Source of the DNA: a virus
Taxonomy: Duplodnaviria; Caudoviricetes
DNA: 64,000 nt
Virus record (IMG/VR): IMGVR_UViG_3300010351_000784
Location: 1-64,000 of that record
Direction: 5' to 3' (one strand)
Position 1 is the stretch's first letter. Each line of letters opens with the position of its first letter. Of the stretch, positions 13,845-41,531 are shown piece by piece. A program made the translations under genes and the position numbers. The notes beneath the pieces were generated by a model, which was given only the letters and a program-made list of their open reading frames with translations, had not been told where the DNA came from and did not search any database.

Positions 13845-15326
13845 TTAACGCCAGCTAAACTGTGAGCGAGAAAGAATCTCAATCATAGCAGACATAGCGT
13901 CCTGAGAGATAAGAGTTGTAAGCTCCTTAAAAGTAGCAGCAGAGCTACCACTGAGATAAGCTACTCCCCTGTTCTCCTTAGATGCAATGTAACGGTCACC
14001 ACGGGAAGCGACGTTCCACATAATAAGCTTTGGAGCCTTAAGACCGATGCTTGCATACTTAGCCTGCCACTTCTCAGCAATTCCCTCGAAAGAAGAACCG
14101 CGAGCCTCAAGACTACGTCTGTAGCTGTCGATTTCTCCGTCAGAAATTACGATAAGTGCAGAAGGTGCGTCATGCTCTCTCTTAGTAATGTCATAGATAC
14201 GCTCGAAAGCAAGGTCAAGGTTAGTGCTAAATCCCTCGTGAGAAGTCATCTGCTGAACTCTTGAAAGCAAGCTGTCGCTTGGGTTCAAAGTGTAAAGAGA
14301 AGGCTCGTTAGTGAATGACATAACAAGGTTCTTGTAAGCACCGCTGTTACGCTCTGCAAAGTAGATACCAAGGCTGATTGATGTTGCCATAGGCAAACCA
14401 GTCATAGAACCCGATACGTCTGCAAGAACAATTGCGTTGTGCTCACCCTTGACGTAGTTTGGAAGTGCCTTCCACTGAGCCTCAAGCACAGGGTCGAGCT
14501 GAGTTCTGGAAAGGCTGTACCATCCAGCTACAGCATCAACATATGGCTTTGCAAGCTCATATGGGTAAGTAACTGAAGCGTTAATCTTTGCATCGCCGCT
14601 TGTTACAGCGTTGATGTAAGCGTTAAAACGCTCAAAGTCGTGCTTACCGAATGCAGAGCGGTAGCGTGTCATAGCGACAGAAGGTACTGCCTGATAGTCG
14701 ATAGCGCCGAAGTTTTGTGCGGACATCTTCTTCTCAACTACATCAAGGTACTTTCTAAGTGCAGAAAGAGTCTTTCTGTAAGTACGCTCGCTCAAACCGA
14801 AATATGTGTAAACCTTTCTCGCAAGACGACGAGTCTCCTTAGAGCTTGTGTTTGCAGAAGGAAGCCACTTAGCAAGCAATGAGATAGAGTTACCCTTGCC
14901 CATGTCAGTAATGTCCTTACGGAGCTGCTCCTTCATGAACTTAAGAGCGTCATTCTCAACGCTTGTACCTTCAAAGACAAACAAGTCGTCCCAACGACCT
15001 GCAGACACGATTGTGTCAAGGTTACGACGAACCTTTGCAGGGTCCTTGATAGCAATAGTCTTCAAAAGAATTCTTGCGATTCTACGCTCACCGATACCGC
15101 CCTCACGGATGTTACGGGCATAAAGAATAAGGTTATCTGCAAGCTCTTTGTCCTCGTTACGAGCATCGAGATAAAGACGGTTAATCTCAGACTCAGATGC
15201 CTGACGAAGTCCACCTACACGTGCGAAAAGGTTAAGCAGTGCGCTACCTGTAGTAGACTTTACCACCGCACCGTTTTCAGTGCGAGTAAGGTTGCTGTTT
15301 CCACGAAATCCATCAGTAAAACTCAT
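13845..15326 (-). CDS. DUF2828 / TROVE-like helical + vWA protein
   Basis: TENGA..STT, RxIRxGxGER, GRWDDL, LLAKWLPS, vWA DVSGSM and ISDGE. Confidence 0.85.
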   Translation of the reverse strand: MSFTDGFRGNSNLTRTENGAVVKSTTGSALLNLFARVGGLRQASESEINRLYLDARNEDKELADNLILYARNIREGGIGERRIARILLKTIAIKDPAKVRRNLDTIVSAGRWDDLFVFEGTSVENDALKFMKEQLRKDITDMGKGNSISLLAKWLPSANTSSKETRRLARKVYTYFGLSERTYRKTLSALRKYLDVVEKKMSAQNFGAIDYQAVPSVAMTRYRSAFGKHDFERFNAYINAVTSGDAKINASVTYPYELAKPYVDAVAGWYSLSRTQLDPVLEAQWKALPNYVKGEHNAIVLADVSGSMTGLPMATSISLGIYFAERNSGAYKNLVMSFTNEPSLYTLNPSDSLLSRVQQMTSHEGFSTNLDLAFERIYDITKREHDAPSALIVISDGEIDSYRRSLEARGSSFEGIAEKWQAKYASIGLKAPKLIMWNVASRGDRYIASKENRGVAYLSGSSAATFKELTTLISQDAMSAMIEILSRSQFSWR

Positions 15327-15351
15327 AATAAGTTCCTCCTTTAATCATACA

Positions 15352-15382
15352 AGATTCATTTTAATTTGTGCTGTAAGAATCT
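15352..15382 (-). ncRNA. Stem + TTACAGCA motif RNA, copy A
   Basis: AGATTC ttacagcac..GAATCT. Confidence 0.5.
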
Positions 15383-15388
15383 ACAACG

Positions 15389-15449
15389 CGTCACGCCTCT
15401 CTTGTCAAAAGAAAATGGCGACAAATTATATAGGTTGCTGCACGTGACG
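15389..15449 (-). ncRNA. Stem + TGCAGCAA motif RNA, copy B
   Basis: CGTCACG tgcagcaacc..CGTGACG with internal TTGTC/GACAA hairpin. Confidence 0.5.
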
Positions 15450-15452
15450 AAA

Positions 15453-15529
15453 TGGTACTCCGAGTGGGACTCGAACCCGCAACACACCATGTTTAAGACG
15501 GATGCCTCTACCAATTGGATTACCGGAGC
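15453..15529 (-). tRNA. tRNA-Leu(TAA), short variable arm, encoded CCA
   Basis: GCTCCGG/TCGGAGT acceptor, loop CT-TAA-AC, GGTTCGAGTCC T arm, ACCA end. Confidence 0.85.
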
Positions 15530-15749
15530 ATTTAAAATGAGCTTTTTGTATACGAAGTCTGCTCAAACTCCGCCGCCATATCGCATTCATGATACATATT
15601 CCCTATCCTGGCGCCTGTATCACTTCTGCCATAGGGCTGGTAAAATTTCTTTAGGGGCAGCGTGGTACACTTGCCTGACTACTCGGAAGATTGTCAACTA
15701 CCACACTTTCGTTCTGGTAGAGGCGTGCTGACCACATAGATAAATACGC

Positions 15750-15847
15750 AAGACACGAAAAATCTGAAAATCCTTGATAACCAATTCACTAAATGATTTT
15801 AAATCTAAATGTTTTTAAATAATTTACAGGTCGCTGTAACGTGTCTT
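15750..15847 (-). ncRNA. Stem + TTACAGCG motif RNA, copy C
   Basis: AAGACACG ttacagcgacc..CGTGTCTT. Confidence 0.5.
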
Positions 15848-15849
15848 CT

Positions 15850-16282
15850 AAATTTCGACGGTTTACATTGCCCGTCAATTGGTGTGGGATAGGAGAATGG
15901 AGGGAGCAAACCTATTGAAGCCAATCTCTTTCTTCCCACAGCGGCTCGTCACCGTTCGGCGTCTCTTTTATGCTTTAGCGAAACTAAAACCTACGCCATA
16001 CTCCTTTTGAGAGCATACTGTATTTATCGCTGACCGATAAACTTTAAGGAATAATGCTATAACATTATCACGATGGACGGTGTTTTCTGATTGTCTTTCA
16101 TAGCTGAAATATTTTCGGGCTTCAGCCACACGAGCGGTCTTGGATTCTCGCCGCCACAAAGTACGGGTAACGTAACCGTACACGCCACACTCTTTCTTAG
16201 CTATGTGATGCCGTCTCATCCTCCGCCTAAGGGAGGTAAGTCTCTCGTTATTTGTTTTATGGATTGCTGTCTTTCCATCGTT
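15850..16282 (-). ncRNA. GC-rich multi-hairpin non-coding transcript (unassigned)
   Basis: Directly after promoter; at least 7 hairpins; no convincing ORF. Confidence 0.4.
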
Positions 16283-16320
16283 TCTATAATAATTATAACA
16301 AAAATTTTGGAAAAAGTCAA
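16283..16320 (-). promoter_or_regulatory. SigmaA-type early promoter (family copies near 200, 985, 2350, 5720, 8530, 9890, 12650, 18450, 21520, 26290, 30115, 51970 minus; 52018, 54558, 58020, 58835 plus)
   Basis: TTGACT-N17-TATAAT with extended TG and conserved ATTATAGA tail. Confidence 0.8.
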
Positions 16321-16352
16321 GAAATTAATTCTTAAAGTTATTCAAATCTGCC

Positions 16353-17276
16353 TTAATGTGCGTTAAGGTCAGCCTCATGGACAAGCTCATACACCTTGCA
16401 CATATCTTCTCCATAAGTTGCCTTGAACTTCTCAAGATAATGCTCAGAATCCGCATAGGACTCCATATGCCACTGTACAAGTACAATCATATTTGCGAGC
16501 AGAACGTGCTGCTTCTCACCCTCAAACTGATTTGCACAGCAAGCCATCATGTATGCGCCGATTTCAGCGTGGTTGTAGTAATGAGAATGGTCATCGAGTT
16601 CACCATTCATCTTCTTGCGAGACTTAACTACAGGCTTACCGATATCGTGGAATAATGCGGCAGTACGAGCAAGATGAATCTGAGCCTTATCCAGACCCTT
16701 CTCTTCACCGTGCTTGGATGCGTATGCACCTGCCTGAATCATGTGGTCAAAAATGTTCGCAGAGTGATGAGGATTATCATGGTCTACACCGTAAGCATCG
16801 TAAAGATACTCTCCAAGAGTCTTGATGTTCTTAGGATGTGCAATCATACGAATGCCATCCCAGCCCTCGTCAAGACGAGGAAGAGTCATCTGCTTGTACA
16901 TTCTCATGATAACGTCCTCAGGAACCTTGCGGTTACGAGAAGCGTTCTGCTCAAGGATAATGTCAAGCTCAGTTGCGGCTACTACAGCAATCTTCTTCAC
17001 GCCAGCAGGAAGGTCCTTCAAGAAGGACTTTCTACGCTTACGAGAAAGGTTGGTAGCATCGTATACGCAGGAAGTACCTGCAAGGAGATACTTTCTAATG
17101 CGGTTGTGAACCTCATTGAAAACCTCTCCGTTATGAGTCTGGTCCTCTTCAGAACCGAATAACTCTGCGCGAATTGCATCGGAAGATACAACAGGAGCGT
17201 TTAGAGTATTTGCAATGTAGGACTTGCCGGAGCCTGGTTAAGGAATGCCAATCATCATATATAAAATTGGCATCAT
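16353..17276 (-). CDS. Polynucleotide kinase (AAA_33) + HD domain; in-frame TAA at 17238-17240 within Walker A
   Basis: MIGIP*PGSGKS, SSDAIR, YDATN, HDNPHH, FHDIGK, HAEIGA. Confidence 0.8.
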
Positions 17277-17294
17277 ATGGCATCACTCCTTCCA

Positions 17295-17410
17295 TCAATA
17301 AGTTGTTTTTGATAAAATCAGGTTATCAATTATTAAATTACTTAAATGAGTATAGGGAATTCTTATTAAAGGAATAGAATTCTTTATACAATACATATTT
17401 TTATTTCTAT
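17295..17410 (-). pseudogene. C-terminal remnant of DUF2726-like homing endonuclease
   Basis: DRNKNMYCIKNSIPLIRIPY. Confidence 0.6.
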
Positions 17411-17499
17411 CTCCGCCCCGGAGCCTTGAAGTAGCTAATTTTAACTGCATAGCTTTTTTCAAGGTCGTATTCGACCATTTCAGTATCACTTGACTCTCG

Positions 17500-18126
17500 T
17501 CACAGCCATTCCTGTGATTCGATGAATCTGAAGATAGTCTTTTTCAGTTCGAACAGTTCCTCGGTATATTCTCCTTCCTCAATTGCTTTTACCTCATTAT
17601 AAATTTCCTTCCAACTATCACAGTGGATAATAGAATGGTCAGTTACATTTCTGTTCCACGGGTAGTCGATACAGATAGAAGTATACTTTCTGCCGCCGTT
17701 CAAATTGTCGATACAGTCGTCAATAAGAACGTCAAGGTCAAGAAGCTGCTTCTTATGAATGTTGATTGTGTGTCTCCAGACGTACCCCGGCTCGAAAAAG
17801 TCCAGCTCTCTTTCAAGATGCTTGATTTTCTTGCGGAGGTTCTCAGGAAGTGAACTGGTTACGAAATAAATTTCGTGTCCCTCTGCTCTCAGTTTGTTGA
17901 TATACTTCTTTGCTCCCTTGATTACCTCAACCTTTTTCCACATATGCTTGGACTCAAAGGCTTCCTGTACAAGAAGCTCATAGCCGCGAGGAAGATTTTT
18001 TTCAAGCCAGTACTGTTTACAATCTTCCAATTTAAAATTAAGGTTAGGAACGCGTTCATTAAGATATTCGATTACTGACTCTGTAGTGTTGACTATAACA
18101 TTATCAATATCTACTCCAAGTATCAT
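17500..18126 (-). CDS. HAD-family 5'(3')-deoxyribonucleotidase
   Basis: GVDIDNV, FVTS, K..LDLDVLIDD, PWN. Confidence 0.85.
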   Translation of the reverse strand: MILGVDIDNVIVNTTESVIEYLNERVPNLNFKLEDCKQYWLEKNLPRGYELLVQEAFESKHMWKKVEVIKGAKKYINKLRAEGHEIYFVTSSLPENLRKKIKHLERELDFFEPGYVWRHTINIHKKQLLDLDVLIDDCIDNLNGGRKYTSICIDYPWNRNVTDHSIIHCDSWKEIYNEVKAIEEGEYTEELFELKKTIFRFIESQEWL

Positions 18127-18129
18127 TTC

Positions 18130-18220
18130 AATAAAGTCTCCTATATATAATTAGAATTTAACTTGTCATAATCCCAATATGGAATAATAACCAATTTAAT
18201 ATTATTATTTTTACAATCGC
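18130..18220 (-). pseudogene. C-terminal remnant of DUF2726-like homing endonuclease fused to a Zn-ribbon ORF
   Basis: CKNNNIKLVIIPYWDYDKL. Confidence 0.55.
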
Positions 18221-18601
18221 CACGACAATTTTTAAAACCTCTTTCATATCTTTCTTTTGTTTTAAAATAAACAAAATTCTCTACGCCGCATTCTGGACAC
18301 TTTATTGCATATTCGTATTCCTGAATGCCAGTCTGTACATATTTTGTTTCATTTTTGCTATAAGCAAAGATGCACCCGCAGTTACATTTCTATGCGTAAA
18401 GGTTGGCGCCGCTTCGCAATACTTTCATTTTTCGCTCCTTTCAAACTTTCTATAATTATTATATCAAAATTTTTTAAAAAAATCAAGTATTTAGATTTGG
18501 GGAAATTTTAAGGAAATTTTATTATATTATAAATGAACACGTGATTATAGTATAAATTTTAGGAAAAGTAAAGAGTTTAGAAAACTAAAATTTTATTTAT
18601 A

Positions 18602-18814
18602 TTAAATAGTAGTATTGTTGCATCTACTCATATCTTCCTTGTCTACTTGTTTTAGTATTTCAAAGGTAAAGTTTTCAATGCCTTCAAGTTGAATAATATC
18701 GTCAATGAATTGGCGACCTTTACAATGTTCATCAAGACGTTTGCCGCAATGGACAGATTGACCAATGTATGATTTGCCGTTTAACTTATTTGTTATTTTG
18801 TAGATACCTTCCAT
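18602..18814 (-). pseudogene. Truncated GIY-YIG endonuclease
   Basis: GIYKITN..SYIGQS..R..EH; stops before the catalytic Glu/Asn. Confidence 0.65.
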
Positions 18815-18869
18815 AAAACTCACTCCTCCTATTATGCTCTTTTATATAAATTTATATTTCTATTTTATA

Positions 18870-40445: not shown

Positions 40446-41531
40446 TTAAGCCTTTACAATCTTAACCTGAATTTTATCAATAGCCTTTCCGTAAAGACCT
40501 GCATAGTCTTCGAGACCCTTAACCCATGGAAGGTAAGCGCCAGTGCCGAAGAGTGAAACTCTGTACATTGCCTGATAGCCAGGAGCACCAACAAGTTCCA
40601 TCTGAAGACCATCAACTGTACAGCCAGGATATCCTGCAACACCGTTGTTCCAGTCAGCCTTATTGTACTGGTCAATCCAGCTATACCATTTGTTTTCGTT
40701 TTTAACATGAACTCTGTACTTAAGTTTACCTTCTGATGTTTTTGCGCCGAAGCCTGAGATAATATAATTCTCAATACCAGCGTAGCCGTTTATATTAACA
40801 TCATTGCAGTTCTTAATTTCACCAAGCCAACGACCTGGGATATATGCACTATATACTACGTCAATAGTTTTTTCAACAGGCTTTACTGGCTCTGGAGTAG
40901 GTTCAGGCTTTGTATCTTCCTCTTCCTTCTTTGCATAGTCAACATAACTCCAGTCTTCATCAACATCGCCGTTAATGCCGCTGTACTTACCTTTCCAAGA
41001 ATACTGCCACATTTCCTTATGACCAGGATAACCAGTATTTGAAAGTGGTGCACCACCATTACCAACGTGTGCAAGCCATACATCATACTTACCTTTTACT
41101 TCATCTGTAAAGTAGGTCTGGAATGTGTAGTATGAAGAATAAAGACCAACCTTATATCCTGCCGCCTTGAGAGCTTCACAGAATACTTCTGCAATCTTAG
41201 AAACATTTGCCTTACCTGTTGCAAATACTGAGTTCTCTTCAATATCATACCATACAGGATAGTCCATCTTTCTGCCGCTTAAGCACTTAATACAAGCTTC
41301 AGCTTCTCTCTTTGCATCGTCAACTGTTTTAGCATAGTTATACCAATAGCCGCCTACTGGAATATTGTTTGCTTTACAGCCTGCATAGTTAGCTTCAAAT
41401 CTTGTATCCTTCTGCGATACTTCACGACCATAACCGATACGAAGTATAGCGAAGTCAATTTCTTTCTTTGTCTGCGCCCAGTTAATGGAGCCGTTCCAGA
41501 CACTTACATCAATACCCTTAAGCTGTGCCAT
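40446..41531 (-). CDS. Endolysin, GH25 muramidase + C-terminal binding repeats
   Basis: GIDVS, WYDIEE, MWQYS, VDED; linker; YRVHV..W..W repeats. Confidence 0.9.
   Translation of the reverse strand: MAQLKGIDVSVWNGSINWAQTKKEIDFAILRIGYGREVSQKDTRFEANYAGCKANNIPVGGYWYNYAKTVDDAKREAEACIKCLSGRKMDYPVWYDIEENSVFATGKANVSKIAEVFCEALKAAGYKVGLYSSYYTFQTYFTDEVKGKYDVWLAHVGNGGAPLSNTGYPGHKEMWQYSWKGKYSGINGDVDEDWSYVDYAKKEEEDTKPEPTPEPVKPVEKTIDVVYSAYIPGRWLGEIKNCNDVNINGYAGIENYIISGFGAKTSEGKLKYRVHVKNENKWYSWIDQYNKADWNNGVAGYPGCTVDGLQMELVGAPGYQAMYRVSLFGTGAYLPWVKGLEDYAGLYGKAIDKIQVKIVKA

Follow-up and report, generated by a model that had tools for sequence, protein, structure and literature searches.

A Pro-stop-Pro site at the edge of a decayed homing-endonuclease cassette in the Walker A motif of a phage polynucleotide kinase gene, and its probable bypass by a one-codon hop

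The interrupted kinase gene and its genomic setting

The stretch of DNA analysed here (the window) comprises the first 64 kb of a phage genome of 94,474 bp. On its minus strand lies a gene for a polynucleotide kinase joined to an HD domain, in which a TAA codon stands in frame inside the Walker A motif (Table 1). The minus strand reads ATT GGC ATT CCT TAA CCA GGC TCC GGC AAG TCC at this site, and all three site codons fall inside 17229-17252, where an earlier note on this DNA had claimed just such an interruption; this much is confirmed in the sequence. The kinase identity given there also holds, since the downstream part matches Pfam AAA_33 and, in PHROGs, phrog_505 polynucleotide kinase (3e-12). 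The hallmarks of an AAA_33 kinase and an HD phosphohydrolase are present, namely the Walker A GxxxxGK[ST], the region of the SSD catalytic Asp and the HD His/Asp motifs. The frame after the TAA is open for 294 codons, close to the ~295 intact codons that had been claimed, but without recoding the Walker A motif is split. Gene callers have annotated only truncated, HD-only ORFs of this kind (P0041, P0043, P0092, P0113), of which P0043 is likely a further carrier of the interruption.

Table 1. Positions of the features of the interrupted kinase gene and of the cassette at its 5′ end
Feature	Position	Strand	Basis
PD-(D/E)XK-type homing-endonuclease ORF remnant, last ~38 codons recognisable	17295..17489	-	PHROGs
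Cassette block of ~113 nt (nuclease 3′ end, SD, mini-ORF, hairpin, stop, landing codon)	17233..17345	-	
Shine-Dalgarno (SD) AGGAG of the replacement start, nine bases before ATG, kept in all carriers	17286..17290	-	sequence
Mini-ORF of 12 codons, MMPILYMMIGIP, replacement beta-1 strand; start ATG 17276, last codon CCT	17241..17276	-	
Hairpin of 10 bp, 5′ arm 17274-17265, 3′ arm 17253-17244	17244..17274	-	ViennaRNA
Take-off codon CCT	17243-17241	-	
In-frame TAA, the A-site codon at take-off	17240-17238	-	
Landing codon CCA, the original Pro of Walker A G-x-P-G-S-G-K-S	17237-17235	-	HMM alignment
Rest of the kinase-HD ORF; decoding would resume at GGC 17234, stop TAA 16355-16353	16353..17234	-	
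AAA_33 kinase domain	about 17237-16878	-	Pfam 8e-17, match from profile position 8
HD domain	about 16751-16368	-	Pfam 4e-9

The kinase-HD protein has about 470 homologues, and the nearest full-length ones (85–93% identity, 306–307 aa) are uninterrupted, with ..LYMMIGIPGSGKS or ..LYMMVGVPGSGKS in this region. The closest intact relatives have ..YMMIGIPGSGKS, with ATT CCC GGC in the DNA (L003), so the window carries exactly six extra bases. Is the resulting arrangement more than a coincidence? X-stop-X′ sites with open flanks number seven in this genome, about the chance expectation, and only the one in the kinase gene sits in a conserved motif with family homology on both sides. This, together with its recurrence in independent assemblies, places the CCT-TAA-CCA site above chance; the other six sites look like chance. 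The same six bases are found in independent assemblies of IMG/VR, JGI, ENA and Logan samples and are not a homopolymer, which upholds the earlier argument against a homopolymer error and makes an assembly or sequencing artefact barely conceivable. Rfam returned no match at the site, and blastn of the locus against INPHARED phages gave zero matches.

TAA is a working stop in this TAG-recoding phage. Among the 120 long ORFs of the whole genome, 80 end in TAA and 40 in TGA, while TAG is read through in 57 (late and structural genes, window 22800-51400 and beyond), which bears out the assertion in the earlier note that TAA is not the recoded codon. Reassignment of TAA would show itself by TAA in frame in many genes and by a cognate suppressor tRNA, and neither is met in the 94.5-kb genome. 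ARAGORN detected no suppressor tRNA in these 94.5 kb, despite the TAG readthrough; the sole tRNA there is tRNA-Leu with the UAA anticodon (15453-15529). The phage shares with gut phages of reassigned stops (code 15, TAG=Gln) the reading of TAG as sense in late genes, but our site has TAA, the stop that this phage uses most, and is confined to one position in one early or middle gene.

The neighbours of the kinase gene are a DUF2828/vWA protein, tRNA-Leu and an NT5C nucleotidase, joined in relatives by an RNA ligase, which suggests an RNA-repair module. The ligase gene lies just upstream of the kinase-HD gene in relatives L115 (1216-2127) and L219 (57-959), assigned by a Pfam RNA_ligase hit on record for the L219 gene and by a KxDG motif recognised by eye in the L115 ORF, and its place beside kinase-HD supports a role of the module in RNA repair. 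In the window the DUF2828+DUF7788/vWA protein (13845-15326), followed by tRNA-Leu, falls within an RNA-repair-like stretch at 13845-16352.

Origin of the six bases in a homing-endonuclease cassette

The six extra bases mark the 3′ end of a homing-endonuclease cassette that has since decayed. Directly upstream of the kinase start, the remnant of a nuclease ORF (17298-17489) matches phrog_559 (E 4e-5) and phrog_9084 homing endonuclease (E 4e-4), and its stop TGA (17297-17295) lies within the SD region of the kinase, just 5′ of the start. A longer piece of the same nuclease is preserved in L001 (1138-1467; phrog_559 3e-17, phrog_9084 1e-13), with a full 311-aa endonuclease (4e-54) directly upstream of it. 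MAFFT alignment of the window, L001, L002 and L007 with the intact L003 delimits the cassette block, which is 95–97% identical in the four carriers, while past CCAGG, i.e. immediately beyond the landing codon, the identity collapses to the level of saturated synonymous sites.

The cassette did not simply split the gene. The mini-ORF sequence MMPILYMMIGIP stands in place of the parental MADVILYMMIGIP, and since no relic of the parental 5′ end is found upstream of the cassette in this genome or in the carriers, the cassette must have replaced the first 13 codons of the gene. At L007 the promoter leader of the intact L115 joins directly onto the last 60 nt of the nuclease remnant. The nuclease is truncated at a different point in each of the window, L001, L002, L007 and L218, and yet the SD, mini-ORF, stop, landing codon and an ORF of 291–294 codons are intact in all carriers; the 882-nt kinase ORF has thus survived where the nuclease decayed. 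The cassette, with its replacement start, hairpin, stop and landing codon, looks built to keep the gene working. The earlier note had offered, as its alternative, that the insert might be the scar of an element left in a pseudogene: the selfish element is real and the six bases are its edge, but the cassette does not look like the scar of a pseudogene.

The three independent assemblies with the intact allele, L003, L004 and L005, all break 22 nt upstream of the kinase ATG, and the shared break point suggests either a repeated promoter element or strain heterogeneity, with the cassette present in some genomes and absent from others.

Distribution among relatives and selection on both sides of the stop

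The insert is not private to this genome, which would have counted against the earlier reading. Six other lineages of the kinase-HD family carry Pro-stop-Pro or a one-base variant of it, and TAA, TGA and TAG forms all occur. CCT TAA CCA is found in L001/L030 (91% amino acid identity), L002 (74%) and L007/L058/L067 (74%), CCT TAA CTT in L218 (about 52% identity), CCT TGA CCA with a different 5′ region in L219/L220 (about 46%) and CCT TAG CCA in L112/L114 (45%). The phage of L112/L114 appears to read TAG as sense in other genes, so that the TAG variant is ambiguous and gives no evidence for or against hopping. In L218 (2288-2296) a single transition separates the landing codon CTT (Leu) from CCT, and the frame of 291 codons is still open; either a mismatch at the middle base is tolerated in hopping or this copy is starting to decay. 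All 80 family loci retrieved from IMG/VR have intact P-loops, but the scan patterns favoured intact loops and hence these loci give no carrier frequency.

Nei-Gojobori dN/dS values among carriers are 0.05–0.2 in every segment, with dS often above 1. The downstream sequence is therefore under purifying selection and not evolving neutrally, the other outcome that was to refute the earlier reading. This includes the 72 codons between the TAA and the first internal start, where dN/dS among carriers is 0.05–0.12. Assuming the hop product, the window protein retains every one of the 47 columns that do not vary among 28 intact relatives. When scored with the family HMM, the hop product, with the GIPGSGKS that the note had derived by skipping the TAA, reaches 545.3 bits in a gap-free collinear alignment, the readthrough product, with two residues inserted in the loop, 539.5 bits, and the downstream part by itself 525.0 bits. 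The mini-ORF thus adds ~20 bits and so encodes an authentic first strand. Collinearity with the HMM and selection on both sides of the stop are the only support, and an indirect one, for a single polypeptide made from both ORFs without residues from the gap.

Could the functional product be the HD domain alone, translated from the internal start TTG 17021, with the kinase part a decaying leader? A 222-aa ORF does begin at this TTG, and the ORF calls of carriers in the databases start there or nearby. However, the low dN/dS over the 72 codons before TTG 17021 is not what a decaying leader would show, the invariant residues of the kinase (G, K and S of Walker A, the SSD Asp, the Arg residues) are kept, and the internal start is itself not conserved, the ORF call in L002 beginning at a different codon. 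We regard this possibility as very unlikely.

It could also be argued that the gene is dead, a selfish endonuclease cassette having overwritten its 5′ end so recently that the ORF is intact only for lack of time. The near-identity of the cassette block, set against the saturated synonymous sites downstream of it in the carriers, agrees with a recent arrival, and the truncated HD-only annotations would be as expected. The gene is moreover a recombination mosaic, with the kinase domain of the window nearest to the intact L003 (99% amino acid identity, dS 0.25) and the HD domain nearest to the carrier L001 (dS 0.30), and from the near-identical 5′ block and this mosaic structure it follows that a part of the purifying selection could predate the arrival of the cassette. 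Against this, the differing decay and deletion of the nuclease in the window, L001, L002, L007 and L218 indicate that time has passed, during which the SD, mini-ORF, hairpin and long ORF nonetheless stayed intact in every carrier. The far more distant L218 and L219 (46–52% identity to the window protein), whose cassettes have diverged, still keep the geometry and the open frames, the window protein has lost none of the invariant residues, and the design persists across deep divergence in two other protein families, including a 500-aa helicase (see below). A dead gene is for these reasons improbable in our opinion.

A conserved hairpin abuts the take-off codon

The replacement start can pair with the I-G-I codons that precede the site, and together they fold into a hairpin whose 3′ arm runs up to the last base in front of the take-off codon. 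The predicted stability is −10.9 kcal/mol with a z-score of −4.1 on a 39-nt segment (ViennaRNA); when 111 nt around the site are folded, no significance is reached (z −0.8), so that only the local hairpin stands out. In L002 and L007 it is kept through a U.G pair, and in L218 and L219 the arm sequences differ while the geometry is the same. Over all kinase-HD carriers z is −2.9 to −4.1 on 39-nt segments, whereas the intact L003 and L115 have no comparable hairpin (z above 0).

The same design in other P-loop families

Searching IMG/VR and JGI metagenomes for the pattern Pro-stop-Pro with GSGK[ST] directly after it revealed two further phage P-loop families with this arrangement. The first consists of small AAA_33 kinases of ~145 aa on AT-rich contigs, several of them from JGI/IMG metagenome assemblies, in many lineages at 54–82% identity, with the sites CCT TGA CCG, CCA TGA CCA, CCT TAA CCA, CCG TAA CCT and CCG TAA CCA. 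The second consists of UvrD-like helicases (Pfam) of ~500 aa, at a GC content of 44–56%, with the sites CCG TGA CCA, CCA TGA CCA and CCG TAA CCG. Contigs of both families are densely coding under table 11. Downstream of the site dN/dS is 0.05–0.3, the value for the 500-aa helicase being 0.05 (L086 vs L090), and in the helicase mini-ORF ..KVFGPP is conserved despite saturation at synonymous sites. Selfish nucleases are again next door: the small-kinase carriers L081, L082, L083 and L088 adjoin NUMOD3+TnsA-like nucleases, in L083 as an intact ORF at 1603-2478, and the helicase L080 adjoins an HNH nuclease.

The hairpin abuts the take-off codon in every carrier of the three protein families. In small kinases and helicases it is strong, with z-scores of −2.8 to −6.8 and examples such as L084 and L093 far more stable than in the window, the 3′ arm ends 0–3 nt before the take-off codon, and the arm sequences vary by lineage, with compensatory changes at 7 of 14 pairs. 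Register shifts in the most divergent members mean that the counts of ‘broken’ pairs in the RNAalifold alignments overstate the mismatches, and the single-sequence folds are cleaner.

The middle codon was analysed with a scan for G-x-P-X-P-G-S-G-K-[ST] that allowed any codon at X. In the three carrier families X is a stop in 29 of 29 matches, with TAA, TAG and TGA each represented and no sense codon among them; sense codons at X appear only in unrelated proteins (L198, L201, L205, L207). The take-off/landing pairs across carriers are CCU/CCA, CCU/CCG, CCA/CCA, CCG/CCU, CCG/CCA and CCG/CCG, with L218 (CCU/CUU) as the exception. As the pairs are often non-identical and L218 lands on CUU, strict codon matching is not required.

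Hopping as the likely mechanism of bypass

What happens to a ribosome that reaches this stop? It is quite likely, as we see it, that peptidyl-tRNA-Pro hops 6 nt downstream from CCU onto CCA, and that the canonical GIPGSGKS results; there are no protein or RNA data, and the hop is inferred from four features, namely that a second Pro is always present, that the stop is always in the middle, that the Walker A motif is restored and that the hairpin is well placed. The hop proposed in the earlier note is supported to this extent. Two things expected of a stop-hop are present, namely take-off and landing codons that the same tRNA can read (CCT and CCA, both Pro) and a codon that is slow to decode, the stop, in the A site. 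All four Pro codons are read by the tRNA-Pro isoacceptor with the UGG anticodon, and release is slow, and termination poor, when proline precedes a stop. According to PMC4519876 this isoacceptor is also prone to shift, and matched-codon stop-hops have been demonstrated in synthetic constructs, as stated in PMC5009743 (citing Weiss 1987).

The sequence of events that we envisage begins with a homing-endonuclease cassette that entered a phage gene for a polynucleotide-kinase/HD protein of RNA repair at its P-loop codons. The cassette would have swapped the 5′ end of the gene for its own SD, 12-codon start, hairpin and Pro-stop before the original Pro codon, and the nuclease gene would then have decayed to a remnant. 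On the resulting mRNA, a ribosome with CCU in the P site and UAA in the A site would be held up by slow release after the C-terminal proline. The 3′ arm of the hairpin would at that moment be in the mRNA exit path, where its refolding might favour forward slippage of the mRNA. Peptidyl-tRNA-Pro could then unpair from CCU and re-pair at CCA 6 nt downstream, with decoding resuming at GGC, and the predicted product is a 305-aa protein with the Walker A motif GIPGSGKS. The six extra base pairs probably shield the conserved P-loop DNA from the nuclease of the cassette, a suggestion made by analogy, in the absence of cleavage data.

Several points count against the hop. No tRNA-Pro is encoded in the 94.5-kb genome, and the hairpin is AU-rich and modest here (about −9 to −11 kcal/mol). 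The E. coli stop-hops of Weiss et al. in 1987 were reportedly inefficient, at about 1%, and the efficiency of the hop proposed here can only be inferred.

A competing explanation is readthrough, in which a near-cognate or suppressor tRNA decodes the TAA and a working protein of 307 aa results, with the loop GIP-X-PGSGKS extended by two residues. The poor termination context of proline would help this process too, P-x-P-G-S-G-K-[ST] loops with a sense middle codon do occur in unrelated viral proteins, the insertion costs just about 6 bits in the HMM, and the TAG-recoding phage of L114 might simply read its TAG variant as an amino acid. However, the genome lacks a TAA suppressor tRNA, and TAA is its most used terminator. 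The middle codon is invariably a stop, though a sense codon would serve at least as well, and with TAA, TGA and TAG interchangeable the inserted residue would vary inside a catalytic loop. Cassettes of independent derivation all have Pro as the extra codon, for which there is no need under readthrough, L218 would have Leu at a conserved P/A position, and the conserved abutting 5′ hairpin has no known role in readthrough. The second Pro codon, the invariant stop, the skip of six bases and the placed hairpin are none of them needed by readthrough, which we therefore consider unlikely.

Relation to known recoding systems

Among the known systems closest to the hop proposed above is the translational bypass of phage T4 gene 60, carried by the MobA homing-endonuclease element. 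In the MobA element a homing endonuclease lies 5′ of the gene and the insert encodes a replacement of parental coding sequence (preprint 10.1101/2022.08.31.505936); the bypass cassette ends at the landing codon and the nuclease has often decayed (same preprint). All four of these traits recur at the kinase locus (compare Bonocora et al. 2011). The differences are as clear: the gap is 6 nt and in frame here but 50 nt there, the tRNA is Pro here and Gly there (GGA take-off and landing codons), and the gene is hit in the P-loop of a kinase (in other cases a helicase) here but is a topoisomerase gene there. The nucleases are PD-(D/E)XK-like, NUMOD3+TnsA-like and HNH, with no sequence homology to the MobA element, and with take-off only 12 codons from the start, a long nascent-peptide signal as in gene 60 is impossible. 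The kinase cassette is thus an analogue of MobA/gene 60 and not a member of that family. The earlier note had invoked the matched codons of gene 60; at our site both codons are Pro and readable by the same tRNA, without being identical. The 50-nt gap of gene 60 is said to protect it from MobA, and this was the model for our proposal of immunity through six base pairs.

The RF2 gene prfB has its +1 frameshift site at AGG GGG UAU CUU UGA C, where, as proposed here, the tRNA in the P site slips while the A site contains a stop. The sequence AGG GGG GTG CCT TGA C of many small-kinase carriers (L083-L111) resembles this site in its SD-like G-run, 3-nt spacer, shift codon and UGA C. In contrast to prfB, the G-run of the small kinases is the 3′ arm of the hairpin, the shift would be +6 and in frame, and there is no evident autoregulatory logic. 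An added anti-SD interaction of the G-run is conceivable in these carriers.

To our knowledge, natural examples of programmed bypassing are very few: the byps of yeast mitochondria, gene 60 of T4 with its homologues, and some candidates from Streptomyces phages. The E. coli stop-hops came from engineered constructs and worked at low efficiency (Weiss, Dunn, Atkins, Gesteland 1987; O’Connor et al. 1989), whereas the site described here is natural, conserved and equipped with a hairpin. A 2016 review knew of no natural occurrences of in-frame stop-hopping (PMC5009743), and our literature searches found no published Pro-stop-Pro or hairpin-stop cassette in Walker A motifs. What would be new is an endonuclease-linked translational bypass, in itself a known kind, that is reduced to one codon and aimed at P-loops.

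On balance we lean towards a more general proposal, that the hairpin with Pro-stop-Pro is a widespread, convergent, minimal bypass cassette, by which endonucleases of at least three families disrupt, and thereby immunise, the conserved P-loop DNA of kinase and helicase genes in phages while leaving these genes functional, and that it represents the first natural one-codon stop-hop. If this is true, a reaction so far seen only in synthetic constructs has a natural case, and bypass sites that occur in nature, are very short and lend themselves to simple assays become available by the dozen, with a simple rule (abutting hairpin, Pro, stop, Pro). Selfish nucleases would have solved the problem of insertion into an essential motif via translational recoding, independently and more than once, and such genes would be systematically mis-annotated as truncated or as pseudogenes in phage genomes, as at this locus, where only HD-only ORFs were called.

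Other features of the window

Downstream of a near-consensus promoter, TTGACT-17-TATAAT (16320-16292), ~800 nt are without a convincing ORF; this stretch has no Rfam match and might be the source of a non-coding RNA. Two more selfish nucleases in decay lie upstream of the NT5C gene, at 18605-18823 and 18126-18428 (minus strand). The first is a 73-aa N-terminal fragment of a GIY-YIG homing endonuclease (Pfam 1e-6, phrog_314 2e-15), and the other is a separate 101-aa ORF with two in-frame TAGs, whose end ..IIPYWDYDKL.. resembles the C-terminus of the L001 endonuclease. A protein of 361 aa (40446-41531, minus strand) has its best phage matches in human-faecal ‘Bacteriophage sp.’ entries and in GH25 muramidase endolysins of phages with Gram-positive hosts, and these matches hint at a gut Firmicutes host.
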